The notes: a model not told the origin generated them from the sequence alone. Numbered from the stretch's first letter, positions 1-13,996 are shown. The stretch is DNA of 64,000 nt from Oscillospiraceae bacterium (GCA_017447645.1 JAFSNA010000095.1:295-64294); one strand, 5' to 3'. Made by a program: numbers and translations.

Positions 1-1226
1 AGCACGGCGATGTTGTCAACGCTGTTTTCCGTCTTCCGCGTGTCGGGCTGCCCCAGGTATTTCAGCCGGAACAGCTCGTCGATGACGGCCTTCTCCACGT
101 CCTTGCACCAGAAGCGCTCGCTGTCGCAGCTGTCGGCCTTGCCGAAGCGGGCGTTGCTGGATTCTTGGGAGGAATAGCAGACCAGCTTGTGCCCCTTGTC
201 GCCCCATTTCTGATAGCGCATCTTCGCGCCGCACTCGCCGCAGTACACGAGCCCTGAGAGCAAATAGTTGGAGCTGGTGCGGTTGACGCTGCGCCGTTGC
301 AGCTCCTCCTGGGCCTCCTGCCAGGTTTCCAGGGAGATGATGGCCTCATGGTTGCCCTCGTACTCCTCGCCGTTGAAGACGATGCAGCCGGTGAGGGACT
401 TGCGCATCAGAATCTGACGGATCGCCTGGTCGCCGCTGAAATGAAAGCGCTCCGCGATCTTCTGCGGCGGCATTTTCTCTTCGATGTACAGGCGGAAGAT
501 CTCTTTTACGACCTCCGCTTCTTCGGGCACAATCTCCAGCGAAGATGTCTCCTTGTTGTAGCGGTAGCCGAAGGGCGCGTTGCCACCGCCCATCCACTTG
601 CCGGAGGCCACCCGTGCCTGCCGCCCCCGCTTGAGCTTCTCCACGATCTGGTCGCGGTCGAACTCTGCCAGTGTGGCGAAGAGCATCAGCAGGAATTTGC
701 CTTGCGGGTTGTCCTTGTCGATGCGGCAGTAGTTTTCCGCAACGGAGACAAAGTTGATGTCCTCCCGGTTGCGGTTGACGGCGCTGTTCTTGCTGTCCTT
801 TGCCGCGACGATGTAGTCCTGGATAAATTGCAGCGTGCCCAGCAGGGAGCGGCCCAGACGGTCGATCCTCGCCACCACCAGGGAGTTGACGCGGATGTGC
901 GACTTCCCGTTGTTGAAGTCCGTGATCGCGCCCATGATCTCCTGCAGAGCCGGGCGATCCATGTTGGTGCCGGTATAGCCGTCGTCGATGAAGAGCACCA
1001 GGTTCTTGTAGCCGTTGGCCGTGCACCAGCGGACAATATCGGCCTCCTGGATATCCAGTCCGAAGCCCAGATCCGCCTGCCGGTCCGTGGACACGCGGAG
1101 ATAGCCCACGTTGATGAGGAAATTGTCATCCTCGTCCAGCTCCACGGCCTCGTCGATGACGATCTTCATGTTGTGCTTGAGTTCAAGTATGTTTTTCAAG
1201 TGGTAAGTTCTCTCTGTCTTTTTCAT
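1..1226 (-). CDS. Large serine recombinase (N-terminal ~408 aa; C-terminus beyond window start)
   Basis: My own minus-strand translation from ATG 1226 (RBS AAGGAAGGTG) reads MKKTERTYHL...NVGYLRVSTDRQ, the catalytic Ser motif. Further on it reads ...LSGLVYCGECGAKMRYQKWG, a zinc ribbon. Not in the ORF track because it runs off the window. Confidence 0.9.
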   Translation of the reverse strand, partial: MKKTERTYHLKNILELKHNMKIVIDEAVELDEDDNFLINVGYLRVSTDRQADLGFGLDIQEADIVRWCTANGYKNLVLFIDDGYTGTNMDRPALQEIMGAITDFNNGKSHIRVNSLVVARIDRLGRSLLGTLQFIQDYIVAAKDSKNSAVNRNREDINFVSVAENYCRIDKDNPQGKFLLMLFATLAEFDRDQIVEKLKRGRQARVASGKWMGGGNAPFGYRYNKETSSLEIVPEEAEVVKEIFRLYIEEKMPPQKIAERFHFSGDQAIRQILMRKSLTGCIVFNGEEYEGNHEAIISLETWQEAQEELQRRSVNRTSSNYLLSGLVYCGECGAKMRYQKWGDKGHKLVCYSSQESSNARFGKADSCDSERFWCKDVEKAVIDELFRLKYLGQPDTRKTENSVDNIAV

Positions 1227-1320
1227 AAGTACACCTTCCTTGGTTTGTAATATAGCATGATTTTTCTCTGTTCTCAATAGTTTTTCAATTTTACTCGTAA
1301 GAACTGCGAAACGTAGGAGT

Positions 1321-1366
1321 GGCGAAAAACGGTATGGGACTGTGACGGTCTCATACCGTTTTCGCC
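1321..1366. terminator. Bidirectional hairpin between the 104-aa gene and the recombinase gene
   Basis: GGCGAAAAACGGTATGGGAC-tgtgacg-GTCTCATACCGTTTTCGCC. Roughly 19-bp stem with T runs on both strands. Confidence 0.6.
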
Positions 1367-1373
1367 TTTCTGT

Positions 1374-1688
1374 TTACCGCACCGATTCTCTGTGGCGCGG
1401 CCTCTTGGGCGGCGGCATCGCGTCCCGCTGCTTCACCAGCTCCTGATTCCGCTCCAGCTTTTTGAGCAACGAGGGCTTCCCCGCCGCGGGAGGCTCGTCC
1501 GGTTCCTCGTCGAGCTCGTCGGCCAGCGCGTCCAGCTCGGACCTCGTCAGCGGCCGGCGCTCATTGCGCTCATAGATCTCGTTTACGATCCTGTCCACGT
1601 CGGGACAGTTGATCCTGATCTTGTCGTAATCGGACGGGTCGATCAGCTCGTCTCCGAGAAACAGTCTCACTTTAAATTCCATTGCCAA
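1374..1688 (-). CDS. Hypothetical small acidic protein (104 aa) of the element backbone
   Basis: ORF with RBS GGAAAGGAGGGG upstream of the ATG. No recognisable domain. Confidence 0.6.
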   Translation of the reverse strand: MAMEFKVRLFLGDELIDPSDYDKIRINCPDVDRIVNEIYERNERRPLTRSELDALADELDEEPDEPPAAGKPSLLKKLERNQELVKQRDAMPPPKRPRHRESVR

Positions 1689-1775
1689 CCCCTCCTTTCC
1701 TATGGATTGTTGCCGAATCGGGCAAAAAGTAATCCCCCGCCGGGCGGCGAGGGAGAGTTGAAAACCTTATTCTGT

Positions 1776-2759
1776 TCATAAGCTCAGCTCCTTTTTCTTC
1801 TGCGGGTCGGGCAGGCTGCGCAGCAGCTCCGGCGCGTATTGGCTGACCCTGCGGTACAGGTTATAGTAATCTGCCTCCAACTGCTTCGCGGCCAGCCGCT
1901 CGGACATTTTCTTTTCCCCGGCGGCCGCCAGGTCGGCCTTCTCCTTTTCCAGGCGGCTGACCTTACCCTCCAGCGCTTTCTTGTCTTTATCCAGATCCTT
2001 GTAGGCCTTTTCGTAGCCGCTCAGCGTCTCTTTGAACTTGGTCAGCCTGGGGAAGAGCTTTTTCAGCCGCCGCTTGACCTCCTCCATGTTCTTTTTGGCG
2101 TTGAACGCGTTGGTGTCGTCCAGGATCGCCACGACCGCGCGGATCTGCTTGTCCAGGTTTTCGCTCTCCTTGAAAAGCCGCGGCGGGATGTGGGTGCGCC
2201 CGGTAATACTGGCGCTTTTGCCGCGCTCCAGGTCAGGGTACTTCTCCGCCATGTGCTGCCAGAAGCCGTCCTGCCACTCGGTCAGCTTTTTCTTGTTGCC
2301 GACGATCTCCTTGGCACTCAGCCGCCCATCCTTCGTGATCGGGACAAAAGAAACGTGCATATGGGGCGTTTTCTCGTCCATATGCACTACGGCGGATATG
2401 AAGTTTTCCGGGGCGATCCGGCTCTGCAGGAAGCTCAGCGCGTGCTCGAAGTAGGCGCGGACCTCGTCCATCTTCTTGCCCGCGAAGAACTCCGGGCTCG
2501 CGGTGACGAGCGTCTCCACCACCCGGATGCTGTTGGAGCAGACGCGGGGACACTGGCACGCTTTGATCCGGTCCTCTGCCTCCGCGCGGTACTTGTCCTG
2601 CGGCTCGATCAGGTGAATGTTGTCCTTGCTGCGGGTCAGGTCCACGTCGGGATTGCTGGCGTAGGTCTCCTTGGTGCGCTCGTTGTGGGCCTCGATGTTG
2701 CCGATCTCCGGCCCCTTGTACTTGGCGAAGCGGAGAATGCCGTACTGTGCTTTTGCCAT
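1776..2759 (-). CDS. MobV-family relaxase (Mob/Pre plasmid recombination enzyme)
   Basis: N-terminus MAKAQYGILRFAKYK plus the histidine motif VVHMDEKTPHMHVSFVPI. The ATG at 2759 follows RBS GGAAGGAGG and overlaps the upstream stop (TGATG). Confidence 0.85.
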   Translation of the reverse strand: MAKAQYGILRFAKYKGPEIGNIEAHNERTKETYASNPDVDLTRSKDNIHLIEPQDKYRAEAEDRIKACQCPRVCSNSIRVVETLVTASPEFFAGKKMDEVRAYFEHALSFLQSRIAPENFISAVVHMDEKTPHMHVSFVPITKDGRLSAKEIVGNKKKLTEWQDGFWQHMAEKYPDLERGKSASITGRTHIPPRLFKESENLDKQIRAVVAILDDTNAFNAKKNMEEVKRRLKKLFPRLTKFKETLSGYEKAYKDLDKDKKALEGKVSRLEKEKADLAAAGEKKMSERLAAKQLEADYYNLYRRVSQYAPELLRSLPDPQKKKELSL

Positions 2760-2980
2760 CAGCAGCCCTCCTTCCGCTTTTGCCACACAAGGTCGTATCC
2801 GAGCACGTCGGCCAGCTCGACGGCCTCCCGGTAGCGGAGCGAATTGCGGGCGAGCTTGTTGGAGAAGTTGGAGACGGAATCGCTCCAGCCGTAATCGTCG
2901 TGGAGCCGATCCAGCAGCTCCTGCATCGTGAATCCGGCGCGGATGATCTGCGCCTTGATTTCGTTTCTGGTGTTGGTCAT
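2759..2980 (-). CDS. Small HTH-like protein (73 aa), translationally coupled to the relaxase
   Basis: MTNTRNEIKAQIIRAGFTMQELLDRL... at the end of the 146-aa track ORF. Its stop overlaps the relaxase start. Confidence 0.55.
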   Translation of the reverse strand: MTNTRNEIKAQIIRAGFTMQELLDRLHDDYGWSDSVSNFSNKLARNSLRYREAVELADVLGYDLVWQKRKEGC

Positions 2981-3010
2981 AAGTAAATCCTTCTTTCTTT
3001 GAATTTGCAC

Positions 3011-3038
3011 GGACTTGAAATCCTCTGTTCGTTCGTAC
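3011..3038 (-). repeat. Motif copy D (GTACGAACGAACAGAGGATTTCAAGTCC), candidate oriT/RSA-like site
   Basis: Lies between the primase stop and the HTH-relaxase operon. Matches plus-strand copies at 4968-4994 (22/27) and 5199-5220 (19/22). Confidence 0.4.
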
Positions 3039-3039
3039 G

Positions 3040-4335
3040 TCATGGGATCAGCGCGTAGATGCCCATATAGCCCCGGACGCGGCGGCCGTTGACATAGAGA
3101 TTGTTCGTGGGCTCCAGGCGGTATTCCGGCGCAAGCGCGGCCATTTGATCCAGGAAGCTCTTCTTGGCCAGCGGGAAGTAGGCGTTCTCCTCGCACCACA
3201 GGACATACAACTCGTACAGGCGCTGGGAGGTAATGTCATAGTCCGCCTTGTAGCCGATATACCCCTCGGATTTAAGGAACTCCGTCACGTTGTTTCCCTC
3301 GGACACGCTCTCCTTCATATTCTCCCGGCTGCGCTCGCTGAGCGTGAACTTGTAGCCGTTTGCCAGCAGCCGGTGCAGCCCCTCCAGCGCCCAGAGGAAG
3401 ATGCTGTCGATCTCGCCGCACAGCTTTTCGGACAGGAAGGGATCGTCCACCCGGTCGGCGGGCTTGTCCTTCACCGTCAGAATGATCTGCCGGCGGAAGA
3501 AGCCGACGCTGCGGTCATAGCGGGATTTCAGCGCCCCGTTGCCAAAGCCGATGAAGCGAACATACATGGTGCCCTGGTAGCTCTGCTTGCCCTTCTTCTC
3601 CAGATCCATGGGCAACTCCGCCGTGATCAGGGTTTTCAGGATGTTCGTATCCGGCAGCGCCTCCATCTTCATGTCGTCGTCCACCATCAGCAGGCCGTAT
3701 TCCAGATCGGCGCGGGCGAAGGGACTGGTCTCCACCTTGGCGATGCTGCCGCTGTACATATTGATACCCAGCAGCGCCGACAGCACGATCCCCACACGGG
3801 ACTTGCCCTCGCCGCCCTTGCCCACCAGCATCAGCATTTTCTGCGCCTTGGTGCTGGGGATCAGGCAGTAACCCATGAACTCCTGTAGGGTCAAAATGTC
3901 CTCCGGGATCAGCAGATCATTGAGGAAGGTGATCCATTTTGTCGGGAAAGGCGCGTCCGGATCGTAGCGCACCGGCAGCCGATTCAGGCAGAAGTCCTTG
4001 CTTTGCTCAAAGTGTCCGTCCAGGAACAGCGTGCCGTTAGCCACGTGGATGCGGTCGTGGTAGATCGGCAGGGGCGGAGAGAAGCACTCCGAGCGCAGCG
4101 CCTCCAGCAGATTATTGACCTTGTTGGAGACACGGGTGCGTACATAGGGCTTGATCTGCTGATAGATCTCGCTCTTCAATCGACTCTCGTCCGTGACCTT
4201 GCCGTCCTGCGTGAAAAAAGTCTCGTGGATGCAGAGCATCGGGTGTTCCTCGCGAAAGCATTCGCAGAAGCCCACCTCGTCGATCTTTCCGTTCCCGTCA
4301 AGCCAGATCGGCGCGGGCTCAAAAGATGTCGGCAT
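3040..4335 (-). CDS. Phage/plasmid P4-type primase C-terminal / SF3 helicase family protein
   Basis: 431 aa with Walker A LMLVGKGGEGKSR. Architecture resembles D5_N/primase-helicase proteins of mobile elements. Confidence 0.8.
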   Translation of the reverse strand: MPTSFEPAPIWLDGNGKIDEVGFCECFREEHPMLCIHETFFTQDGKVTDESRLKSEIYQQIKPYVRTRVSNKVNNLLEALRSECFSPPLPIYHDRIHVANGTLFLDGHFEQSKDFCLNRLPVRYDPDAPFPTKWITFLNDLLIPEDILTLQEFMGYCLIPSTKAQKMLMLVGKGGEGKSRVGIVLSALLGINMYSGSIAKVETSPFARADLEYGLLMVDDDMKMEALPDTNILKTLITAELPMDLEKKGKQSYQGTMYVRFIGFGNGALKSRYDRSVGFFRRQIILTVKDKPADRVDDPFLSEKLCGEIDSIFLWALEGLHRLLANGYKFTLSERSRENMKESVSEGNNVTEFLKSEGYIGYKADYDITSQRLYELYVLWCEENAYFPLAKKSFLDQMAALAPEYRLEPTNNLYVNGRRVRGYMGIYALIP

Positions 4336-4894
4336 ATTCGATCACCTCCTTTTGCAGCAGCGCCTCGTAGCGATCCAGCACACCGCCTTCGGTCAGATAG
4401 GCGATCTCGTCCTCTTTCTGCTGTGCTGTGCCCCCGGAAAGCAAATCTGCCAGACCTGCGATAAAATCGTACATCTGGCAGTTCTGCGCGTATTCCGTTG
4501 TGATGGGATCGTCCATGCTCTGCGGCGCGGTTCCCCATTTTTGGTGATGAAGCCGGACCTCCAGAGCCAGCAGCACGTCATGGCAGCGCTTGGCCGGATC
4601 GGGCGGCTTGGGCGGGGCAGGCGTGTATGGGAGATCGACTCCGTTCCCGAAGTCTGCGAGCAGCTTTTCCGCCGCTTCCTTCAGCGACAGGTTGAAGTAC
4701 TTCGCCGTGAAGTCGATCACGTCTCCGTCCTCCCCGCAGCCGAAGCAGTGGAAACGCTCGTCCAGCTTCATGCTGGGGTTGTGGTCGTCGTGGAAGGGAC
4801 ACACTGCCATCCCGCGGCTGTTTACCGTCAGCCCATAGTGTTCTGCCGCCTCGCGGGCTGTGACGAGGCCTTTGATTGCTTTGAAATCAATCAT
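4319..4894 (-). CDS. CHC2 zinc-finger (DnaG-type) primase-like protein
   Basis: CPFHDDHNPSMKLDERFHCFGCGEDGDVIDF motif. Overlaps the downstream helicase gene by 17 nt. Confidence 0.8.
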   Translation of the reverse strand: MIDFKAIKGLVTAREAAEHYGLTVNSRGMAVCPFHDDHNPSMKLDERFHCFGCGEDGDVIDFTAKYFNLSLKEAAEKLLADFGNGVDLPYTPAPPKPPDPAKRCHDVLLALEVRLHHQKWGTAPQSMDDPITTEYAQNCQMYDFIAGLADLLSGGTAQQKEDEIAYLTEGGVLDRYEALLQKEVIEYADIF

Positions 4895-4934
4895 CTCTTG
4901 TACCTCCTGTATTCGATTCGGAGGCAGGAAAAGA

Positions 4935-4994
4935 AAAAGACCTGAACTCTTCCGCCCAGGTACGGTAGTACGAATGGACGGATGATTTCAGGTC
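4935..4994 (+). repeat. Hairpin module copy A (GACCTGAA...TTCAGGTC) containing a motif related to D
   Basis: The 5' end AAAAAGACCTGAACTC and 3' end GATGATTTCAGGTC resemble copies B and C. On the minus strand the hairpin is followed by a T run just upstream of the CHC2 gene. Confidence 0.5.
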
Positions 4995-5151
4995 GCTGCG
5001 TTTTTCTGTTCAGTTGTGCGTGTGATCCCTCCTTTCGCGCAGATGGAAGTTTCTTTTCTTTTTCGCTGCCTCCACCCAATTATACGAAAAAATCCCTCAC
5101 GAAAGGCTGAAATCGACACGATTGCAATTTGGCAAGCCGCTCTCGGCGGAG

Positions 5152-5169
5152 AATTGCAGATCTGCAATT
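5152..5169. promoter_or_regulatory. Perfect 18-bp palindrome AATTGCAGATCTGCAATT (candidate operator)
   Basis: Read directly. A related palindromic half-site ATTGCAAT sits at 5121-5128. Confidence 0.45.
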
Positions 5170-5178
5170 TTGGGCACA

Positions 5179-5221
5179 AAAAAGACCCGGAGTCACCGGT
5201 ACGAACGTACAGATGATTCCG
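5179..5221 (+). repeat. Module copy B, left flank of the PRTase-DprA-phosphoesterase cassette
   Basis: AAAAAGACCCGGAGTCACC ... GATGATTCCG. The first 19-mer is 18/19 identical to 8035-8053, and the terminal 10-mer is identical to 8073-8082. Confidence 0.6.
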
Positions 5222-5235
5222 TATTGCAAGCCGTG

Positions 5236-5264
5236 TTGCCATTAAACAAATCCTGGTGTATTAT
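5236..5264 (+). promoter_or_regulatory. Candidate sigma-70 promoter (TTGCCA-17-TATTAT) at the start of the AT-rich cassette
   Basis: Hexamers and spacing read directly. TATAAT is also present at 5262-5267. Confidence 0.4.
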
Positions 5265-5316
5265 AATAATAACAACTAAAGAACAGAAAGAAGGGATTAT
5301 CAAGAACTTCTTCAGT

Positions 5317-5571
5317 ATGACAGGTGAGCTTTATGATGATCAAAATCTTTTCCAAATCAAGTTCCCTGACCAACTTTGGACAAACATCAGAGTCTTTGTC
5401 CGCAATTTCAGGGACCTGCCACTATGGAAGGACCGGACAATGGCGTCAACTGTATTTGGAGGAAAGCAAGTGAGCGAATACTGGAGCACAGCCTTTCGCA
5501 CAGGAAGAACGCCAGATGGTACTATCGTTTTGTCTAAGCCCATTAACGTCGTTGATATGATCAAGTCATAA
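5317..5571 (+). CDS. Possible small protein (84 aa), uncertain
   Basis: Internal ATG of the 149-aa track ORF. No convincing RBS and no recognisable domain. Confidence 0.25.
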   Translation: MTGELYDDQNLFQIKFPDQLWTNIRVFVRNFRDLPLWKDRTMASTVFGGKQVSEYWSTAFRTGRTPDGTIVLSKPINVVDMIKS

Positions 5572-5639
5572 CCTGGCAATGGACAAGCTCTGCTTTTATG
5601 CTATAATAGATTTGATAAGGTTTTCTTGGAGGTCTCATA

Positions 5640-6230
5640 ATGGCTGTTGAAGTACATCCTATCCAGCTAAACGGGAATTGGGATATCGGCTATGCGTTGG
5701 ATCAGCATGTAATAAGAAGTGTTCATATTGCAGACGATCCGTTCGGTAATCCTGTTTTTGACAACACATACTCTGAAATCGGCGAACTGTTGACCAAATT
5801 CAAGTATAAAGGGCGATATGACAACCTGACAGAAATTGTTTCAACAATCGAAGTGTTTTTACGATCACATCCAGAAATGATGGATTTTGAGACCATTATT
5901 CCTGTTCCACCCACAAAGTTTAGACCTTATCAGCCGACATGGGAAATATGTGAGGCTTTGGCAAAGGATTTAAATCGTTTTTTTATTACTGATGTTCTTG
6001 TAAAGGAATCTGGTGTCGAGTCAAAAGGCTTATCTCTTGAGGAAAAACGCCAGCTCAGTGGTACAATTCGACAGCAACATCGGGCCAAACGGAAGCATAG
6101 TGTTTTGCTCCTTGATGACCTATATAAAACTGGGACAACCTTGACAGAGTGTGTAAGTGTTCTTCGTCGGGATCCTCTGATTGATAAAATCTACGTGCTA
6201 ACGGTCACAAAAACAAAGAACCCGAGTTAA
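5640..6230 (+). CDS. ComF-like phosphoribosyltransferase (PRTase) family protein
   Basis: PRPP-binding loop VLLLDDLYKTGTTLTE. RBS GGAGG 7 nt upstream. Extended -10 TGCTATAAT at 5599-5607. Confidence 0.8.
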   Translation: MAVEVHPIQLNGNWDIGYALDQHVIRSVHIADDPFGNPVFDNTYSEIGELLTKFKYKGRYDNLTEIVSTIEVFLRSHPEMMDFETIIPVPPTKFRPYQPTWEICEALAKDLNRFFITDVLVKESGVESKGLSLEEKRQLSGTIRQQHRAKRKHSVLLLDDLYKTGTTLTECVSVLRRDPLIDKIYVLTVTKTKNPS

Positions 6231-6250
6231 CTCTAGTGGGGAGGTGAAGT

Positions 6251-7189
6251 ATGAAAAACCAGTACCTGTTGCAGCTGATGCTCACCAAAGGAATTGGTGA
6301 TGCTGCGATAAAGAAAATACTTCACTATGCTTTTACGCATCAAGATGTTTCGCTTGAGCTCTTCTGCAAAGAGCCTTTGCAGCTGAATGCGGTGTTGAAT
6401 TGCAAGGAAGAAACCTTGCTAAGCATACTGCAGAATGAAGAGCGCGCGAAAAAGCTTTGTGGTGAAATGTTGGAAAAAGGGATCGCTGTTATTTCTGAAA
6501 TTGATAGCGAGTATCCCGAACATTTGAAAAAGGCGCTCAATGGGCAATGCCCACCTGTGCTTTTTGTGAAGGGGAACTCAGCGTTGCTCTCAACGAAGTC
6601 CGTCGGCTTCTGTGGCTCACGAAAGGTTTCTCCAAAAGGCGTAATGATTACCGGACAGTGCGCTGAGCAGCTGACCGACCGAGGAATCACAGTTGTCAGC
6701 GGGTATGCTGCAGGAACAGACTTGGCCGCGCATAGCGCAGCTTTAGCGCATGGCGGCAACACTGTGTTCGTTTTGGCGGAAGGTCTTTTGAAGAACACAG
6801 AGAAAGTCGAGATTCGGGATCTGCTCACAGAAGAGAACCACGTTTTTGTTTCTCAATTCCTTCCGGCACAGACATGGAACGTCGGGAATGCCATGCGGCG
6901 GAATGCTGTTATTATCGGGCTTTCAAGCGCAATGATCCTGGTCGAGTCAGGAAAAACTGGTGGAACATTTGCGGCAGGCGAGGAATCATTGAAACGGGGA
7001 ACTCCGTTGTTCGTGATCGACTATGAGAAGCCTGAGGTCTCTGCGGAGGCAAATCCGTACTTCATCGAAAAAGGCGGAATGCCTATCCGAGGGAAGAAGG
7101 GCGTCCCAAACCTTGAGAAAGTCTTTCGTGCTATAGACGAATCAGGCCAAACGCCTCCTTGTTCCGAGCAGTTGATGCTTGACTTATGA
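6251..7189 (+). CDS. DprA/Smf-like (SLOG-superfamily Rossmann) protein
   Basis: VGFCGSRKVSPKG...VVSGYAAGTDLAAHSAALAHGGNTVFVLAEGL...MRRNAVIIGLS...VESGKTGGTFAAG matches the remembered DprA core pattern. RBS GGGGAGGTG upstream. Confidence 0.8.
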   Translation: MKNQYLLQLMLTKGIGDAAIKKILHYAFTHQDVSLELFCKEPLQLNAVLNCKEETLLSILQNEERAKKLCGEMLEKGIAVISEIDSEYPEHLKKALNGQCPPVLFVKGNSALLSTKSVGFCGSRKVSPKGVMITGQCAEQLTDRGITVVSGYAAGTDLAAHSAALAHGGNTVFVLAEGLLKNTEKVEIRDLLTEENHVFVSQFLPAQTWNVGNAMRRNAVIIGLSSAMILVESGKTGGTFAAGEESLKRGTPLFVIDYEKPEVSAEANPYFIEKGGMPIRGKKGVPNLEKVFRAIDESGQTPPCSEQLMLDL

Positions 7190-8034
7190 AGATTTACGTC
7201 ACAGCTGACGTTCACGGCTTTTACACTGAATTTCATAATGCGCTGGATGAGGCGGGGTATTTCATCGATCCAGATCCGCACAAGCTAATTATTCTGGGCG
7301 ATATCTTCGACCGCGGTACAGAGGCAGTCGAGATGCAGCAGTTCATCTTGGAGCTCATGGAGCAGAACGCTGTCATTCTGATACGCGGGAATCATGAAGA
7401 TCTCTTCGCGGAAATGATTACGATCGACGAGGGCCTGCCTGTCCGGCATCATGTGAGCAATGGCACCTACGGTACGGCGCTGCAGCTGACCGGCTACGAT
7501 CCGACGCTGGCGCAGATCCGGCATTGGGATTTCGCCGAGAAAGCGCGGGAGACACCGTATTATCAGCGCATCATCCCCGCGACAATTGATTGGTACGAGA
7601 CGGCGCATTACATCTTCACCCATGGCTGGATCCCCTGCATCCGCGGATGGGACGGCAGCTACAGTTATGATCCCGACTGGCGCGACACCGGGCCGGAGGG
7701 CTGGCGGATGGCGCGTTGGTATAATGGGATGGACGCCGCGCAGAGCTGCACGGAAGAGAAAACGATCCTCTGCGGGCACTGGCACAGCTCCTACGGCCAC
7801 AGCAAGTATGAGGGCAAGGGCTCGGAGTTCGGCCCCGACGCCGATTTCAGCCCGTACTACGGCCCCGGCGTTATCGCGCTGGACGCCTGCACCACGCACA
7901 GCGGGAAAGTCAATGTGATCGTGATAGAAGATGATGACCTTCCCGATCAAGACGCAGAGGACGAGCGTTTCCGCGAGGTAACGCAGCGCATCCTCGAGGA
8001 GCACAAAGCAGCTTTCGTGGAGTTGGCAAAATAG
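7186..8034 (+). CDS. Calcineurin-like metallophosphoesterase (PPP/ApaH-like)
   Basis: Motifs DVHG, GDIFDRG, GNHED and CGHWHSS. The start ATG overlaps the DprA-like stop (ATGA). Confidence 0.85.
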   Translation: MKIYVTADVHGFYTEFHNALDEAGYFIDPDPHKLIILGDIFDRGTEAVEMQQFILELMEQNAVILIRGNHEDLFAEMITIDEGLPVRHHVSNGTYGTALQLTGYDPTLAQIRHWDFAEKARETPYYQRIIPATIDWYETAHYIFTHGWIPCIRGWDGSYSYDPDWRDTGPEGWRMARWYNGMDAAQSCTEEKTILCGHWHSSYGHSKYEGKGSEFGPDADFSPYYGPGVIALDACTTHSGKVNVIVIEDDDLPDQDAEDERFREVTQRILEEHKAAFVELAK

Positions 8035-8085
8035 AAAAAGACCCGGAATCACCGCATCAGTTTGATGACATCGATGATTCCGGGT
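8035..8085. terminator. Module copy C: bidirectional terminator hairpin, right flank of the cassette
   Basis: ACCCGGAATCA (8041-8051) pairs with TGATTCCGGGT (8075-8085), with an A run before and a T run after. Its ends repeat copy B. Confidence 0.7.
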
Positions 8086-8094
8086 TTTCTGTTA

Positions 8095-8958
8095 TTATGC
8101 GCCAATCAGATTCTGCGTAATCTGATCGAAGAAATCCTTCCCCCACACAGCAAGCTTGTTTGGATCCTTGATAAACGGCAAGACGTCCTGCTTTGCCTGC
8201 TCATAGTCGATCGTTGCAAAACGTGCGTGAAGAAGCTCTTTCAGTTGCCCAATATCCAATGGAGCGTCTGTGTCGAGAAATTCGGATTGCCGGAGGCGAG
8301 CTTCCAGGTGCTTCAGATTGACCGGTGTATTCATTGAGAGATAGAACACATAGTCATAGAGATCGCGGCCCTTGATGCGATTTTTCCAAGCACGGCAAAG
8401 AACAGCATGTATTTTCCCTGCAAACAGAGAAGGCGCATCATACAGGCAGATCTCATAGGGGCTGGGCAGCAGCCGATACCTATGCTCAAAGGTTGCAAAG
8501 GGCGGCGGATTTGTGTCGATCTCGAATTTGATTTTGATCAGTTCGCTCGGCGCGATGGACTGAGCAAGACGATCATCCGCGTAGAACAGCAGGATGTGCT
8601 CCTTTGTGTTCCCCTTCAGAAAGGCAGATTGGATAGCGGATTCCGCCGTCTTTACACGCCCTTCAGCTTTGAAGTTCAGCCCGTAGGATCGGATCTCCTT
8701 TTCCAGCACCGGAAGATACTCGCCCAGGTCAAAACCCTCCGGCGCCATCAGCGAAAAGTCAAGATCCTCCGAGAAACGATCCAGGCCATAGAAAATCCGC
8801 AGCGCCGTTCCGCCGTAGAAGGCTACGTGCTTGAAAAAACCGGCACGGCTCAGCCCGCAAAGCACGATCTCCTGAATGATCTCCTTGATGGCATTCTTCT
8901 TGTCGGCCGAAGTCTGTGGCTCATAGGCGCGCAGCATCTGCTCAAGTACTTGTTGCAT
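8095..8958 (-). CDS. abiEii: AbiEii/AbiGii-family nucleotidyltransferase toxin
   Basis: FYGGTALRIFYGLDRFSEDLDFSL motif. The likely start MQQVLEQ at 8958 overlaps the upstream gene end. Confidence 0.8.
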   Translation of the reverse strand: MQQVLEQMLRAYEPQTSADKKNAIKEIIQEIVLCGLSRAGFFKHVAFYGGTALRIFYGLDRFSEDLDFSLMAPEGFDLGEYLPVLEKEIRSYGLNFKAEGRVKTAESAIQSAFLKGNTKEHILLFYADDRLAQSIAPSELIKIKFEIDTNPPPFATFEHRYRLLPSPYEICLYDAPSLFAGKIHAVLCRAWKNRIKGRDLYDYVFYLSMNTPVNLKHLEARLRQSEFLDTDAPLDIGQLKELLHARFATIDYEQAKQDVLPFIKDPNKLAVWGKDFFDQITQNLIGA

Positions 8959-9544
8959 GATGGGTCTCCTTTCTGATCCAGGATCGCAGCAGCTTGTGGT
9001 TCTTCGTCTGGTACAGCGCGGCAAGCTGTTCCATCTCTGCGAGGTCAAGCCCTAAGAGCGTTTGACGGTCGATTCGCAGATTTTCAAACAGCAGCTGCTC
9101 CAGCTCCCTTCGATTTGCACAAGGCGAGAGCTTATACAACTCGTCACAGAGCGCCTTTTCCGGCGCGGCCAAGCGATAGCTGTATCCGTTCTCGACCATC
9201 GGCAGGACACCGTAGGGGAAAGCAGATTCCGGCACGTCCCGATAACTGAAGACGCCGAAGGGCGTTTCAAACTGCTTGGCCCTCTTCTTGTCAAAGCTTG
9301 CCGACGTGAATTGATGGACAGCTTCCGGGATCAGGCCATGGTGGGCAAGGGCGTATTCAAAAGACAGATAGGACGGGCCGTAAATACTCGCTGCAAGAAG
9401 ATAGCCCGGTGTATGGGGATCGGTCTCATACAACCCGCGCACGACGCGGGTCAATTCGCCGTTCTTTACCATGCTCGTAATCTTCATTGCAGGATTTCTA
9501 TAGCCATTCAGTTCATCCATAAGGACAAGATGCGTTTTTAGCAT
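8942..9544 (-). CDS. abiEi: AbiEi-family antitoxin / transcriptional regulator
   Basis: MLKTHLVLMDELNGYRNPAMKITSMVKNGELTRVVRGLYE... N-terminal wHTH pattern. RBS GGTGGTG. Overlaps abiEii by 17 nt. Confidence 0.75.
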   Translation of the reverse strand: MLKTHLVLMDELNGYRNPAMKITSMVKNGELTRVVRGLYETDPHTPGYLLAASIYGPSYLSFEYALAHHGLIPEAVHQFTSASFDKKRAKQFETPFGVFSYRDVPESAFPYGVLPMVENGYSYRLAAPEKALCDELYKLSPCANRRELEQLLFENLRIDRQTLLGLDLAEMEQLAALYQTKNHKLLRSWIRKETHHATST

Positions 9545-9563
9545 ATTTTCACCACCAGTTACA

Positions 9564-9592
9564 ATATTACTGTAATTGCTGGCAAAAATCAA
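9564..9592 (-). promoter_or_regulatory. Candidate abiE promoter (TTGATT-17-TAATAT) with overlapping imperfect inverted repeat
   Basis: Hexamers read on the minus strand. TTACA-n7-TGTAA and CCAG...CTGG lie at 9555-9582. Confidence 0.45.
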
Positions 9593-9655
9593 GCGGTTTT
9601 TGCGATTCAATTCATTCTCTTTGGGAGAGCTTCTATGTTTTCAAATAGTCTATTG

Positions 9656-9664
9656 TGATATAAT
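9656..9664 (+). promoter_or_regulatory. Extended -10 element TGATATAAT upstream of the 112-aa gene
   Basis: Read directly. No strong -35. Confidence 0.35.
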
Positions 9665-9719
9665 GGTCAACACAGAGGTTGAAAAGAATAGCATTGCTCA
9701 GCGAGAGGAGGTGAAGGGC

Positions 9720-10058
9720 ATGAGCAAGTATTCAGACGACGATATTCGTGAAATGAACCGGGTTACCATTCAAGCCGCGGCACAGTATCTTGGCATATCT
9801 GCAGCAGCGGTTACCATGGGCATGAGGAACGCATTGCTCCCAATTGGTTTTGCTGTCAAAAACGAAGAAAACCGATATTCAGATTCCTGGCATTACGTCA
9901 TTGTTCCCGAAAGACTTATTGCTTACAAGCACGGGCGAATTAATGAAATCCAAGTTAAGAACATAGAAGACAGTCTAACGACAATCGTAAAAAGTTTTGA
10001 GGAAATGAAGCACGACCTGCTTTTTCTATTAAAAGAAAACGAGGGATCGGAGGGATAA
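9720..10058 (+). CDS. Hypothetical small protein (112 aa), possible HTH
   Basis: Internal ATG preceded by GAGAGGAGGTGAAGGGC. Contains VTIQAAAQYLGISAAAVTMGMRN, a helix-turn-helix-like segment. Confidence 0.5.
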   Translation: MSKYSDDDIREMNRVTIQAAAQYLGISAAAVTMGMRNALLPIGFAVKNEENRYSDSWHYVIVPERLIAYKHGRINEIQVKNIEDSLTTIVKSFEEMKHDLLFLLKENEGSEG

Positions 10059-10111
10059 AAGTATTTGACAGCCTGTTCCAGCAAGAAGAAAAGAAGGAGG
10101 AGGTGAAAGAA

Positions 10112-11626
10112 GTGGGCGGAAAAACCGTAAGTCGGCAGGAGTTATACGATGAAATATGGACTATTTCAGCAAGTAAGGCAGCCGAGAAATATGAGATAAG
10201 CTACGCAAGGTTTCTGAAAATCTGCAGAGAGAACAGCATTCCAATCCCGCCTTCCGGCTATTGGACAAAGCTGCAATGCGGAAAGCCTGTTGAAAAGACA
10301 CCTTTGCCAGCGTCAAAAATAGATGTTGTTGTGCTTGACCCTGAAAAAGGGAAACCAAAAGAAACAGACGAAATCATAGCACAGCAGGCAGTCATCGTCC
10401 CTGATGAGGAAAAAATCGGGCTGGAGATCCGATATGAAGGCCAAACGCAAAGGTACAATCGGGAGACCTTATACCAGGAAGTATGGGAAGAGCCTATGAC
10501 GGTCGTCAGCAAGCGATATGGAATGTCTGATAATGGGCTCAGAAAAATCTGTCGTAAGCTTGATGTTCCGTTCCCTCCGGCTGGATATTGGGCAAAAGTG
10601 CGTGCTGGGAAGTCAGTATCAAAGCCTGCGCTCCCGAAAGTGAAAACACCACCTAACGAAGATAAACCCAAGACAGGAGAGCGCCGAAAACTACATGTTG
10701 AAGAAACTGCACTTTCGTTCTTAAAGGAAGAGGACCGCAGGAAAATCGTAGATGCTGCAAGTAAGCTGCGCGTTGCCGGACCTGGTGCCAAGCTGCATAA
10801 GGATATTGCCAGCCAGAAGGAAAAATGCGAAAGCTGGCTGGAACGGCAAAAAGAGCGTGGTCAAAGGTATGGCCGATATGTCGAGGAAGTGCCGGTTCTT
10901 GCCGCAGACATCTCAAAAGAGAGCTACGGTCGGGCCTTCCACATACTGGATGCTTTGCTGAAAGGCATGCTGCCCTTTGGCGCTTCTGTAACATACCAAT
11001 TCCATTTTCAGGTGAACGGCGAAGATGTTCCCTTTTCCATGTCGGAATCAAAGGATCAGATTCCTCACACGGTTACGCAAGAGGAAAAGCTGGCTTTGCT
11101 TAAATATGAAGAAGCAAAGAGAAAGAATTCTTGGGCATCAAAGCCCAATATCCCCAAATGGGAGCATCCATGGAACGGAAGACTGACGCTGACCATTAAC
11201 GGAAAATACAAATTCATGGACTGCAAATCCTATTCTCTCGAAGATCGAATCGGCGAAATCATGATCGCTTTCTATGAAGCCTCCTATGCTGTGCGGCTGC
11301 AGAGACTGGAAGCGGAAGAAAAGAGGCGCAAAGAAGAAGAGGAGCGCAGAAAGGCGGAGGAGATTCGCGCGAGATACAACAAGGAAATCGATTATACGGG
11401 AGGGCTGATCAACGCAGCAGAAGACTATGATACTGCATGCAAGCTCCGCGCCTATATCGCTGCGGTAAAGGCCTCTGGTCAGAAATCGGAAGACTGGATC
11501 GAATGGGCGAACGCGAAAGCGGATTGGTTTGATCCAACCATTCATGCAGAAGATCCATATTTTGGCGTAAGGCAGCATGCCAAGAGCGCAGACAGCAAAA
11601 TGCCAAAGCGGAAAGGATACTGGTAA
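10112..11626 (+). CDS. Hypothetical protein with two N-terminal HTH-like repeats and a coiled-coil-like EK-rich segment
   Basis: GTG at 10112 (or 10103) after AAGGAGGAGG. Repeats are ELYDEIW...LKICRENSIPIPPSGYWTKL and TLYQEVW...LRKICRKLDVPFPPAGYWAKV. Confidence 0.7.
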   Translation: MGGKTVSRQELYDEIWTISASKAAEKYEISYARFLKICRENSIPIPPSGYWTKLQCGKPVEKTPLPASKIDVVVLDPEKGKPKETDEIIAQQAVIVPDEEKIGLEIRYEGQTQRYNRETLYQEVWEEPMTVVSKRYGMSDNGLRKICRKLDVPFPPAGYWAKVRAGKSVSKPALPKVKTPPNEDKPKTGERRKLHVEETALSFLKEEDRRKIVDAASKLRVAGPGAKLHKDIASQKEKCESWLERQKERGQRYGRYVEEVPVLAADISKESYGRAFHILDALLKGMLPFGASVTYQFHFQVNGEDVPFSMSESKDQIPHTVTQEEKLALLKYEEAKRKNSWASKPNIPKWEHPWNGRLTLTINGKYKFMDCKSYSLEDRIGEIMIAFYEASYAVRLQRLEAEEKRRKEEEERRKAEEIRARYNKEIDYTGGLINAAEDYDTACKLRAYIAAVKASGQKSEDWIEWANAKADWFDPTIHAEDPYFGVRQHAKSADSKMPKRKGYW

Positions 11627-11665
11627 AGCTTTTGGTTCAGCATTCAAAAGCAGCAAAATGGTGCA

Positions 11666-11712
11666 GTTAAGAGGGCAACTTTTGCAAAAATGCAAAAAGT
11701 TACCCCCTTAAC
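11666..11712. repeat. Long imperfect palindrome downstream of the 505-aa gene
   Basis: GTTAAGAGGGCAACTTTTGCA-aaaa-TGCAAAAAGTTACCCCCTTAAC. Confidence 0.5.
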
Positions 11713-11784
11713 TCGATATTTTCATGTTGCGGCTAATGCTATACACATCGGCAAAAAATCAAAAAAATGCCGAAATGTATTTTG

Positions 11785-11816
11785 CTGAATTTGAATTCAG
11801 TGAATTTGGATTCAGT
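11785..11816 (+). repeat. Tandem 15-nt repeat GAATTTG(A/G)ATTCAGT x2
   Basis: CTGAATTTGAATTCAGTGAATTTGGATTCAGT read directly. Confidence 0.5.
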
Positions 11817-11830
11817 AAAAAGCGGTGGTT

Positions 11831-11847
11831 GCTCTCCAATCCGATAG
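11831..11847. repeat. Copy of the sigG junction core (GCTCTCCAATCCGATAG)
   Basis: Compare GCTTTTCTCCATCCGATAA at 12441-12459. AATCCGAT also recurs at 11861-11868 and 11891-11898. Confidence 0.45.
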
Positions 11848-11858
11848 ATTTCGGGTTT

Positions 11859-12422
11859 TCAATCCGATGAATTTTCGCCCTCGAAGTTATAATCCGATAT
11901 GACTCTCACCTTCAACTGCGGCGGGCTGTCCGGCACGGCGCGGTTGTTATAGATGGGGAGGCCAAGCTTCTCCAGCAGGATGCGCCAGCGGCGGGTGTGG
12001 TTGTACTTGGCGATGGCGAACCAGCCGCGGGAGGGATGGGCGCGGCGGGCGTTGTAGTCCTCGGCGCTGGTCGGCTGGATGCGCAGGTACTCCTTGATGA
12101 AGTCTTCGGTGGCCTTGGCCTGGACCTCATCGAGGGGCATTTTCTTTGTCGGGTAGTGCTGCTCCAGCCACTCCTGCAGCGTGATGCCGAAGCGGCGCTT
12201 GATGACCGTGTGCGGCGGGAGGCCGCGCTTCTTGAAATCACTGGTGGTCGGCACCCGACCGTGGTCGAGGATGAACTGCTCCACGGCGTCGAAGATCGCT
12301 TCTTCCGACCAGCTGAAAAAAGGCAGTTCCCCGGACAGCGTATGTAAGATCCCTGCGGCCTCGGTCTGGCCGGCCGCGTTCAGTGCTTCGATGGCGGCGC
12401 TCAGCGCCTGCTTGCGTGTCAT
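11859..12422 (-). CDS. Element-encoded hypothetical protein (187 aa), possible DNA-binding repeat protein
   Basis: Only the C-terminal part of the 544-aa track ORF is plausible. ATG 12422 follows AGGAGG 9 nt upstream. Two degenerate W/F..G..P....F repeats recall homing-endonuclease-associated repeats. Confidence 0.6.
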   Translation of the reverse strand: MTRKQALSAAIEALNAAGQTEAAGILHTLSGELPFFSWSEEAIFDAVEQFILDHGRVPTTSDFKKRGLPPHTVIKRRFGITLQEWLEQHYPTKKMPLDEVQAKATEDFIKEYLRIQPTSAEDYNARRAHPSRGWFAIAKYNHTRRWRILLEKLGLPIYNNRAVPDSPPQLKVRVISDYNFEGENSSD

Positions 12423-12427
12423 AGAGA

Positions 12428-12748
12428 TCAGCCTCCTGTGGCTTTTCTCCATCCGATAATCGCTGGAACGCCGTAGGTGGAGAACTGCACCTGCTGGCCC
12501 AGGTCGAAGGCATCCACCGCCTTGATCAGGCCGATCACGCCGACCTGGAAGAGGTCGTCCATGCTTTCGCCGCGGCCGGAGAAACGCTGCACCACGCTCA
12601 GCACCAGGCGCAGATTGCCCTCGATCAGCTTCTGCCGCGCCTGCATGTCGCCGCCGCGCGCTTTTTCGAGCAGCATTTTGGTCTCCGCGCTCTTCAGAAC
12701 CGGCAGCTCCGCGGTGTTCACCCCGCAGATCTCGACCTTTCCCTGCAT
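12428..12748 (-). pseudogene. sigG: 5' fragment of a sporulation sigma factor G-like gene, interrupted after codon 99
   Basis: MQGKVEICGVNTAELPVLK...GNLRLVLSVVQRF...DDLFQVGVIGLIKAVDAFD...FSTYGVPAIIG parallels B. subtilis SigG up to ...STYAVPMIIG. It then reads WRKATGG-stop instead of EIRRYLRD. Confidence 0.8.
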
Positions 12749-12784
12749 GAACATCCCCCACTTTCGGAAAAGAGAAAGTGGAGT

Positions 12785-12814
12785 TAGTATTTCCCGCCGC
12801 GGGAAAAATCATAC
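12785..12814 (-). promoter_or_regulatory. Forespore-type (sigma-F/G-like) promoter candidate GTATG-N18-AATACTA
   Basis: Read on the minus strand about 40 nt upstream of the sigG start. Resembles the remembered sigma-G consensus GHATR-N18-CATXHTA. Confidence 0.45.
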
Positions 12815-12842
12815 GGCCGCGAACCATATGCGGAAACAGCGG

Positions 12843-12869
12843 AAACGGGCGGCCGACGGCCGCCCGTTT
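12843..12869. terminator. Hairpin terminator AAACGGGCGGCC-gac-GGCCGCCCGTTT
   Basis: Perfect 12-bp stem with a T run. Lies downstream of the minus-strand gene ending at 12884. Confidence 0.7.
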
Positions 12870-12883
12870 TTCTTTTGCTTTAT

Positions 12884-13996
12884 TCAGTAGCGCATCATGT
12901 CCGAGGCGTAGAGCTGTCCGTCCTTTTCGCAGACGAAGACCCGCGCGCGGTTTTCCGAGCGCGTGGTCCCGCTCAGGCCCAGCGTGTCGACCGTGAAGCA
13001 GACGTCGCAGACATATTCGCCCTCGCTCAGGCGGATGAACGCGCGGTGCTCGACGGAGACGAGATCGTTCCGGCGGTTGTGCGACCAGAGCTGGCCGTTG
13101 CGCGCGTTGGCCGCGCGCGCGGCAAGATCGCTCTCCGGCAGCAGCAGCGTCACGATCGCGCGGTAGCCGCTCACGACCATGTCCCGGTGACAGCCCATGA
13201 ACGCGACGTAGCCCGCGCAGTAGCGGTCGATAAAGTCCTCGAGAGCCGCCTTCTCCTGCGCCGAGCAGCTGTTCAGGATGCTCTCGCGCAGCAGCGCCTC
13301 GAAATCCGTGTCGGCGCCGTATTCCCGCCCCTCGCCGTCCGTGATGCGCAGCGGCGTCTCGCCGATGCGGTCCGTGACGGTGTAGGTGACGAGCTCCGGC
13401 GGCTCCTGCGCCGTGCCGGCGAGGTAGGAAAGCTCCGGGCAGGCGGCGCGGCGCGCGGTCACATAGCTCTCGTCCAGCTCGTAGCCGCCGCATTCCACGC
13501 GGAAGCCCTCCGGCACCGTGACCGTGAGGTCGCTCTCGGCCGGGAGGAAGGAGAAGTCCAGCTCCTCGCCGCAGACTTTCCAGGGGCGGATCCCCCGGGC
13601 GGCGTTCTCGCCGCGCTCAAGCGTCAGCGAGCCGACGATCTGATCGCCGGAGAGAAGGATCCATCTCTCGTTTTCCGCGCTGCAGCCCGCCTCGTCGCGC
13701 ACGCCGCGCAGATCTCCGTGCAGCAGCGGCGCGGCATAGCGCGCAAAGATCTCCCGCGCCGGGCAGATCCGGCTGTCGAAATGCGCGAGCGAGGGCTCGG
13801 CCAGGAGGAAGGCGTGCTCGTCGTCCAGCGTGTCGATCCAGGCGTTCACGGCGCTCGGCGCGCTCGCGTCCTCATAGGCCTTCAGCCAGCGCTGCAGCAG
13901 GAAGAGCCCCGCGCCGAGCAGGATCAGAAAGACCAGCGCGTAAACGAGCATCGCGCGGCCGAGTCCGCCTTTTCTTTTTCTTTTCGCTCCGCTCAT
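12884..13996 (-). CDS. Membrane-anchored hypothetical protein (370 aa)
   Basis: Start MSGAKRKRKGG followed by TM helix AMLVYALVFLILLGAGLFLL. ATGA overlap with the upstream gene. Confidence 0.65.
   Translation of the reverse strand: MSGAKRKRKGGLGRAMLVYALVFLILLGAGLFLLQRWLKAYEDASAPSAVNAWIDTLDDEHAFLLAEPSLAHFDSRICPAREIFARYAAPLLHGDLRGVRDEAGCSAENERWILLSGDQIVGSLTLERGENAARGIRPWKVCGEELDFSFLPAESDLTVTVPEGFRVECGGYELDESYVTARRAACPELSYLAGTAQEPPELVTYTVTDRIGETPLRITDGEGREYGADTDFEALLRESILNSCSAQEKAALEDFIDRYCAGYVAFMGCHRDMVVSGYRAIVTLLLPESDLAARAANARNGQLWSHNRRNDLVSVEHRAFIRLSEGEYVCDVCFTVDTLGLSGTTRSENRARVFVCEKDGQLYASDMMRY

Follow-up and report, generated by a model that had tools for sequence, protein, structure and literature searches.

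Organization of the Locus

The window analyzed here, a stretch of 64,000 nucleotides (nt) from an Oscillospiraceae bacterium (GCA_017447645.1, JAFSNA010000095.1:295-64294), contains three co-directional genes, termed g1, g2 and g3, which code for a ComF-type phosphoribosyltransferase (PRTase), a DprA-like protein and a metallophosphoesterase. They probably make up a composite locus in which two independent modules, a ShosTA-like pair (g1-g2) and a mobile phosphatase (g3), share one transcript. The following features were assigned, with coordinates counted from the first letter of the window and protein lengths in amino acids (aa):

5317-5571, + strand: open reading frame (ORF) g0, 84 aa, outside the module and probably no conserved gene
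5580-5607, + strand: promoter serving the g1-g2 module (TGGACA with the -35 element at 5580, 16-nt spacer, TG-extended TATAAT)
5640-6230, + strand: g1, ComF-type PRTase, 196 aa, putative toxin of the ShosT/PsyrT PRTase class
6251-7189, + strand: g2, DprA-like protein, 312 aa, putative antitoxin of the PsyrA/ShosA class
7182-7195, + strand: junction formed by recombination of the ShosTA-like module with the phosphatase cassette, defined by homology borders, with the ATGA overlap inside
7186-8034, + strand: g3, PPP-family (lambda NinI-like) metallophosphoesterase, 282 aa

The ORFs, the 20-nt gap between g1 and g2, the 4-nt ATGA overlap of g2 and g3 (CTTATGAAG) and the catalytic motifs on which the original prediction of a three-gene defense system was built were all recovered, and the motifs occupy alignment columns that are invariant or nearly so within the families. 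Shine-Dalgarno sequences precede g1 (GGAGG) and g2, and g3 has none of its own. The promoter is the top sigma-70 match within positions 4800-9800 (11 of 12 positions) and is conserved in the related metagenomic locus L021. Homology to the sister loci L020-L024 starts exactly at this promoter (5580), past the stop codon of g0. The suggestion that the 84-aa ORF might belong to the cassette was therefore rejected; g0 also showed no family match in the Pfam, PADLOC and NCBIfam profiles and no tblastn match in related loci. A second copy of the ComF, DprA or g3 genes, or any com gene, was not found within the 64-kb window, and an Rfam scan of positions 1-13000 returned no known RNA.

The compositional contrast described earlier is real: the GC content of g1 (0.41) and g2 (0.49) lies below that of the upstream 5 kb of island backbone (0.58) and of the host chromosome (0.64). 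Within g3, GC content climbs from 0.48 to 0.65, which had been taken as a sign of mosaic assembly. However, g3 homologues in unrelated contexts show an equal gradient, so that the rise is a family trait and not a recombination scar; the true junction lies at the g2/g3 boundary (7182-7195).

The g1-g2 Pair as Conserved Unit

A profile of the g2 family retrieved 80 metagenomic loci, of which 71 offered sufficient upstream and 52 sufficient downstream sequence. In 68 of the 71 loci, the gene immediately upstream of the DprA-like one codes for a PRTase, and pairs of this type span phyla, separated by gaps of 8-30 nt or joined by 4-nt overlaps. The g2 homologues with 96, 84 and 83% identity each lie 20-22 nt behind a g1 homologue of 194-196 aa; no phosphoesterase gene follows in these loci, and restriction-modification systems adjoin. 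DNA homology to the closest pair without g3 extends from the -35 element at 5580 to position 7182, 7 nt before the g2 stop. At the distant end, a g1 relative of only 33% identity is still paired with a DprA-like gene, and a Nitrospirae groundwater contig (L117, 5001-6187) carries a short PRTase (40% identical to g1) that overlaps by 4 nt with a gene for a minimal 196-aa protein. This protein lacks a Pfam match, exhibits a SLOG-like GGS...GDANGVD motif and stands in for the full DprA-like gene. Partnerships of short putative PRTase toxins with DprA/SLOG antitoxins thus extend from Clostridia to Nitrospirae.

The identities of the two genes vary independently between loci. Identity to g1 and g2 of the window is 74 and 96% in L021 and 57 and 92% in the metagenomic contig L124, and in L021, L025, L031, L124 and L125 taken together g1 ranges from 55 to 76% while g2 ranges from 83 to 96%, with the breakpoint at the g1/g2 boundary. 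This pattern fits a free shuffling of putative toxin and antitoxin alleles, as might be expected for partners that do not need to bind each other.

The g2 protein carries the motifs GSRKVSPKG, GYAAGTDLAAH and ESGKTGGT and matches the Pfam family DNA_processg_A (8.4e-42, 143 bits). Its score against TIGR00732 (120.8 bits) remains below the cut-off of 191.15, and its best PADLOC match is PsyrA (1.9e-63, 213 bits), which covers profile positions 66-306 of 398 and leaves the C-terminal helix-turn-helix (HTH) part of that profile uncovered. The ShosA model matches g2 over its full length (2.3e-43), and the top match among PDB sequences is the ShosA crystal chain 9vzo_A (1.2e-16).

For g1, which consists of 196 aa only and has neither a helicase domain nor a fused N-terminal hydrolase domain, the Pfam match to Pribosyltran is weak (E 1.1e-3). 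The comF model TIGR00201 is matched at 4.8e-12 with 46.2 bits against a curated cut-off of 233.55; the alignment begins only at profile position 45 and no cysteine occurs in the N-terminus, showing that the N-terminal zinc finger of ComFC is absent. In PADLOC, g1 aligns with positions 537-685 of the 689-position PsyrT profile (1.8e-9) and with the short ShosT model of 237 positions (6.3e-6), and among 40 relatives all match PsyrT (best 1.8e-23) and 36 match ShosT. The phosphoribosyl pyrophosphate (PRPP) loop VLLLDDLYKTGTT is intact, and residues D159, D160 and G165 are invariant among the 40 sequences. The AlphaFold2 (AF2) model (predicted local distance difference test, pLDDT, 89) consists of a single PRTase domain and a beta-rich N-terminus of 45 residues. 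Its closest PDB structure in Foldseek is Helicobacter pylori ComFC (7p0h, E 6e-7), and ShosT (8zvc) follows at rank 32 (E 3e-4, TMq 0.54). A profile search of the PDB sequences with g1 did not retrieve ShosT, and phmmer gave no match in the same set at E values up to 1. As about 100 g1 homologues are all 190-210 aa long, the short PRTases appear to be a coherent subfamily of putative minimal toxins of about 196 aa, ComFC-like and devoid of helicase and hydrolase domains. The minimal toxic unit common to ShosT and PsyrT would thereby be narrowed to the PRTase domain. The human-gut metagenome loci L150-L176 carry a longer PRTase, of about 290-300 aa with an N-terminal extension, whose gene overlaps by 4 nt that of a distant g2 relative (about 54% identical) downstream.

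Relation to Known Systems

PsyrTA was reportedly described by Sberro in 2013 and ShosTA by Millman in 2022. The original prediction named an anti-phage pair of a DprA-like protein and a PRTase (Rst_DprA-PPRT), which is ShosTA, and the PADLOC matches to PsyrA, ShosA, PsyrT and ShosT show that this comparison suits g1 and g2. ShosTA is the "DprA-PPRT" pair identified as an anti-phage system by Rousset et al. (PMC9122126). The added statement that no mechanism is known is outdated, as ShosTA has since been characterized both structurally and mechanistically (Pu 2025, PMC11961720; Yang 2026, PMC12961424). The toxicity of ShosT requires PRPP binding, and ShosA is an unstable protein that binds single-stranded DNA (ssDNA) and RecA, not ShosT (PMC11961720; PMC12961424). 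Escherichia coli ShosT (424 aa) possesses an N-terminal, pyrophosphatase (PPase)-like hydrolase domain (residues 1-164) that enhances toxicity, and an APRT-like PRTase domain with elongated pyrophosphate (PPi) and flexible loops; the E. coli system is triggered by the T7 kinase Gp0.7 (PMC11961720). For RqlHI/PsyrTA, the toxic activity has been assigned to the PRTase domain of RqlH and to the aspartate of its PRPP pocket (Russell and Mulvey 2015, PMC4670107). Homologous pairs of DprA-like proteins and PRTases have accordingly been established by experiment as toxin-antitoxin or anti-phage systems (PMC9122126; PMC4670107; PMC11961720).

The pair shares with PsyrTA/RqlHI a ComF/PurF-like PRTase, which in the PsyrTA/RqlHI toxin depends on its PRPP pocket and to which g1 aligns at PsyrT positions 537-685, and a DprA-like, in g2 putative, antitoxin, PsyrA being the best PADLOC match of g2. 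It differs in that g1 corresponds to the PRTase domain alone, without the RecQ-like helicase domain, and in that g2 ends at position 306 of the PsyrA profile, without the C-terminal HTH region of RqlI. With ShosTA of the E. coli APEC O1 type it has in common the co-directional arrangement of a PRTase gene upstream of a DprA-like antitoxin gene, the intact acidic pair of the PRPP site, the full-length coverage of g2 by the ShosA model and the occurrence in defense islands and on mobile elements. The finding that ShosT and ShosA do not bind each other is also in agreement with the allele shuffling seen here. In contrast to the 424-aa ShosT, the 196-aa g1 is ComFC-like and lacks the 164-residue PPase-like domain. 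The transformation proteins ComFC and DprA resemble the pair in the 7p0h fold of g1 and the DprA-like Rossmann core of g2, but g1 and g2 differ from them in scores below cut-off, in the missing zinc finger of g1, in the absence of com neighbors and in their mobile defense-island context. The claim that the genes do not belong to a competence locus was thus upheld. By analogy with these systems, g1 and g2 are predicted to be a toxin-antitoxin defense pair of the ShosTA/PsyrTA class, belonging to a minimal ComF-type subfamily.

Independent Distribution of the Phosphatase Gene

The genomic context of g3 was surveyed in 99 loci of its family, 80 of them from reference genomes. None of the 99 loci contains a DprA-like ORF within 6 kb, and a PRTase gene was found in only two, at a distance of 5.5 kb. 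Conversely, only one of the 52 DprA-like loci with downstream room carries a gene of the g3 family. A g2 gene of at least 82% identity occurs in six distinct contexts, and g3 accompanies it only in the window and in L124; the closest pairs (g2 identities of 96, 90, 84 and 83%) are without g3. In 19 g3 loci, DNA homology to the window is limited to the g3 ORF, beginning at about 7172 to 7204 and ending at about 7920 to 8035.

The tight upstream neighbors of g3 homologues fall into 27 unrelated clusters. Many are defense genes, including those for HsdR, GajB, BrxA, DolB, PDC-S11, PDC-M37B, HEPN/Toprim proteins and a Schlafen-type helicase, and many g3-family members are the last gene of bona fide defense operons. 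Other clusters have no defense connection (a CHAP-domain protein, a GNAT protein and a serine recombinase). The closest homologues are preceded by the following genes:

91% identical: NucS_C-like gene
91% identical: AAA/PglZ cassette, likewise with a 4-nt overlap
85% identical: small ORF about 800 nt away
83% identical: ApeA-HEPN gene and NucS_C-like gene
77% identical: DUF2513 gene, or small ORFs

The position between the pair and AbiEii that g3 holds in the window is itself variable. In L021, it is occupied by a gene for a P-loop/STAND-like ATPase of 1,529 aa with a weak PDC-M54A match (3396-7985, - strand), and in L125 by one for a GmrSD_N (DUF262) type IV restriction-like protein of 668 aa (2235-4241, - strand). 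A role of g3 as a conserved backbone gene flanking an insertion hotspot was therefore rejected, since neither flank is kept in the 19 loci and g3 is itself the variable element in comparison with L021 and L125.

The borders of homology coincide at the g2/g3 boundary: homology to loci with only the ShosTA-like pair stops at 7182, and homology to loci with only g3 begins at 7172-7204. In L021, a terminator hairpin directly follows the g2 stop codon. An identical ATGA overlap joins g3 homologues to unrelated preceding genes in L016, L054 and L075, as the start of g3 supplies the stop codon of whichever gene lies upstream. Judged by this distribution, g3 is a predicted independently mobile, promoterless single-ORF cassette and not an obligatory third component. 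The phosphoesterase had been put forward as the obligatory partner in a triad, for which a neighborhood survey had been proposed; across independent loci, the three families are not conserved together.

The Phosphatase Family

The g3 protein matches Pfam Metallophos (1.8e-15) and contains the motifs DVHG, GDIFDRG, GNHE and GHWH; residues H10, G38, D39, D42, R43, N69, H70 and H198 are invariant and D8 and H200 near-invariant in the family. Foldseek places the lambda Ser/Thr phosphatase (1g5b, E 6e-11) first for its AF2 model (pLDDT 92), followed by the PnkP phosphatase domain, PP5 and ApaH. Relatives in phages (about 24% identity) carry the annotation NinI-like phosphatase. With lambda NinI and its PPP relatives (PrpA/PrpB, PrpE, ApaH and PnkP), g3 shares the DxHG, GDxxDRG and GNHE motifs and the distal histidines, but identity amounts to only about 21-24%, and g3 differs by two helical additions, an insert around residues 69-132 and a hairpin at the C-terminus (255-281) of the 282-aa forms. 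The family comprises more than 3,300 homologues, mostly of about 249 aa, and the 33-residue C-terminal tail is found in the closest ones only. The PADLOC model PDC-S10, a candidate single-gene system, is matched by 22 of 26 family members, weakly (best 2.1e-7), and by g3 itself at E 9.5e-7, with the match limited to residues 1-135, which form the metal-binding N-terminal half and align with profile positions 10-138 of 223; g3 is thus apparently a relative of this model and not a member. From motifs and modeled fold, g3 is a PPP-family, lambda NinI-like enzyme with predicted phosphatase activity. A search of the literature retrieved no paper that treats this phosphatase family as a defense gene.

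In eight loci, a gene for a HipA/CtkA-like kinase of about 385 aa lies behind a g3 homologue of 249 aa (76-78% identical), at a distance of -4 to +21 nt; the kinase bears the HipA/CtkA catalytic loop LVGNTDRHWGNWGFL, and its family profile matches CtkA (3akj) at E 5.5e-4. Translational coupling was noted for the following kinase genes:

L005, 3531-4682
L039, 3449-4609
L041, 4438-5595
L044, 6772-7914
L049, 6772-7944
L051, 6747-7904

Because a sub-clade is coupled to such kinases, the sequences suggest that the g3 family acts on phosphoproteins. The kinase-coupled loci lie downstream of varied defense genes and may represent kinase-phosphatase modules of the toxin-antidote type. Kinase coupling is confined to the 76-78% sub-clade, and most family members have no kinase nearby, so that a derivation of the orphan g3 genes from a kinase-phosphatase pair is not favored by parsimony. 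In two human-gut loci (L152, 2257-2940; L172, 2218-2901), a HipA-like ORF (E 1.6e-13 to the kinase profile) is located about 215 nt downstream of the ShosA-like gene.

The kinase-coupled arrangement, which resembles a toxin with its antidote, the NinI-like phage relatives and the presence of the family on mobile elements that cross phyla all speak for an anti-defense or anti-kinase role, in which g3 would be an orphan phosphatase that neutralizes Ser/Thr kinase toxins or signals originating from host, phages or competing elements, and would travel with defense islands merely as fellow accessory cargo. The rarity of nearby kinases and the terminal position of many members in genuine defense operons argue against it, and this role is considered unlikely.

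Proposed Function and Alternatives

As a composite of two modules, the locus can be explained as follows. Module 1 (5580-7189) would be an abortive-infection pair of the toxin-antitoxin type, with g1 as the counterpart of the PRPP-dependent, genotoxic PRTase domain of RqlH/PsyrT and of ShosT's PRTase domain. The g2 protein would be a DprA-like antitoxin that binds ssDNA and RecA and, by analogy with ShosA, counteracts damage indirectly and is subject to fast turnover. Going by these homologies, a phage that blocks host expression or loads the cell with ssDNA would cause the loss or titration of g2, upon which the PRTase toxin would kill or arrest the cell. Module 2 (7186-8034) would be a promoterless phosphatase ORF whose insertion precisely separates the stop codon of g2 from the terminator of that gene. 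Its ATGA start would provide g2 with the TGA stop, and g3 would be expressed by translational coupling. The phosphatase would be dispensable for the pair and most likely an autonomous protein phosphatase of defense islands, both modules occupying a variable defense slot of a mobilizable island. The proposed triad that makes, senses and erases a nucleotide signal would then be a false lead, created by the juxtaposition of a known type of toxin-antitoxin pair and a separate, independently moving gene.

Several observations weigh against such a clean division. The g1 model is structurally nearer to ComFC than to ShosT. E. coli ShosT carries the fused N-terminal PPase-like domain that g1 lacks, and a phosphohydrolase acting in trans is conceivable. 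In addition, the metagenomic contig L124 contains g1-g2-g3 with an identical junction (GCTTGACTTATGAAG) amid unrelated flanks and with its own terminator after g3. Its g3 is 81% identical to that of the window, and DNA identity is 0.85-0.9 from position 6235 through the junction to about 7280 and 0.74-0.8 thereafter. This block across the junction implies a single origin of the junction, which then persisted through the exchange of g1 and most of g3. Retention of the fusion through divergence and relocation may reflect selection for a function together with the pair. However, the g3 of each triad is 91% identical to alleles outside ShosTA contexts and thus closer to these than to the g3 of the other triad, and an in-frame stop codon removes the C-terminal tail of g3 in L124. 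The contig is read here as a case in which a harmless or slightly beneficial passenger has persisted, and a facultative functional link of g3 to the pair in this sub-lineage is regarded as quite doubtful.

Such a link could take the form of a true three-component variant in this sub-lineage, in which g3 acts on the reaction or the trigger of the ShosTA-like pair. The phosphatase could hydrolyze PPi or a nucleotide product, replacing the N-terminal domain of ShosT, or dephosphorylate the targets of a phage kinase. The former is in line with the lack of the toxicity-enhancing PPase-like domain in g1, the latter with Gp0.7 as a trigger of ShosTA, and both with a g3 expression tied to g2 by the ATGA overlap and the missing Shine-Dalgarno sequence, as well as with the L124 junction and the terminator behind its g3. 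Against them stand an association in only 1 of 52 related pairs and in none of the 99 g3 loci, the four closest pairs without g3, the affinity of both triad g3 genes to alleles from other contexts, the truncated tail in L124 and the formation of the same overlap with unrelated genes. Moreover, PPP enzymes are not known as inorganic pyrophosphatases. Such a variant is therefore clearly unlikely, and as a general rule, the substitution of g3 in trans for the missing PPase domain of ShosT was rejected because the closest short-PRTase pairs have no g3 and because of this lack of known PPases in the PPP family.

An idea that concerns the phosphatase rather than the pair is that the NinI-like enzyme is a portable accessory of defense islands, which by means of its ATGA start plugs into the 3' ends of many unrelated defense operons and provides a general phospho-reset or anti-kinase activity, for example against T7 Gp0.7. 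It is improbable on the whole; if true, g3 would serve to adjust or shield the ShosTA-like pair where the two occur together, here and in L124. Finally, it is highly improbable that g1-g2 is a ComFC/DprA-type ssDNA-handling module for the establishment or recombination of the island after transfer and not a defense pair: the ComFC structure is the closest to g1, DprA models match g2 and the MobV relaxase implies that the island enters new cells as ssDNA, but the scores lie far under the curated cut-offs (46 vs. 233 and 121 vs. 191 bits), g1 has no ComFC zinc finger, g2 scores higher with PsyrA (213 bits) than with the Pfam DprA family (143 bits), the pair adjoins defense genes in elements of differing backbone, and homologous pairs are proven toxin-antitoxin or anti-phage systems (PMC9122126; PMC4670107; PMC11961720).

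With the locus read as a composite of pair and passenger, the most interesting residue of the analysis is the phosphatase family itself. A lambda-phosphatase-like family that recurs as the last gene of varied defense operons, sometimes together with a HipA-like kinase, opens a testable way to explain what NinI-type phosphatases do on mobile elements, which has long been a puzzle.

The Surrounding Island

The cassette lies among mobile-element cargo in a defense island beside an AbiE pair, as initially described and as borne out by PADLOC and NCBIfam profiles. The features of the island are:

1-1226, - strand: large serine recombinase, running off the left window edge (NCBIfam XisF-like 3.5e-28; CcrB/CcrA-like 4.7e-27 and 7.4e-26)
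1776-2786, - strand: MobV relaxase (NCBIfam MobV 1.8e-47)
3040-4335, - strand: P4-type primase (NCBIfam primase_Cterm 2.9e-31)
4319-4894, - strand: DnaG-type zinc-finger protein (NCBIfam dnaG 2.7e-16)
8041-8086, no strand assigned: bidirectional terminator-like hairpin between g3 and AbiEii, stem CCCGGAATCA / TGATTCCGGG
8095-9610, - strand: AbiEii/AbiEi pair, an independent neighboring defense module (PADLOC 1.3e-105 and 4.8e-66)
12428-12754, - strand: truncated sigG, N-terminal 101 residues only (NCBIfam SigG 5.3e-45, positions 2-100 of 258)

The sigG reading frame reaches a stop codon seven codons past the SigG match. The island appears to be a mobilizable element of about 12.4 kb that bears a serine recombinase and interrupts sigG at its right end. 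This interruption resembles a skin-like element in the gene of a forespore sigma factor, and no account of a sigG-intervening element was retrieved from the literature. Elsewhere, pairs of the g1-g2 type adjoin restriction-modification and other defense genes in elements with different backbones, and the 3' end of AbiEii is common to the window, L021 and L125.

A hairpin with this stem (CCCGGAATCA / TGATTCCGGG), whose loop varies from 15 to 25 nt, is found repeatedly where modules adjoin in otherwise non-homologous DNA. Copies were located at:

L015, 2777-2817
L020, 6970-7015
L021, 3342-3387 and 8094-8134
L031, 7489-7530
L037, 6854-6897

It may represent a hotspot of recombination or a bidirectional terminator common to these loci. 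Within the 64-kb window it is single-copy, and its independent contexts, only about six in number, all belong to close relatives of this element; in place of a general cassette-boundary site, it may be no more than a terminator that they have in common.

Further cargo of the island includes a gene at 10103-11626 (+ strand) for a 507-aa protein with the repeated motifs SGYWTKLQCGKPV and AGYWAKVRAGKSV and a weak RWP-RK match, which adjoins a 160-aa ORF with a faint match to a mad1-like HTH.

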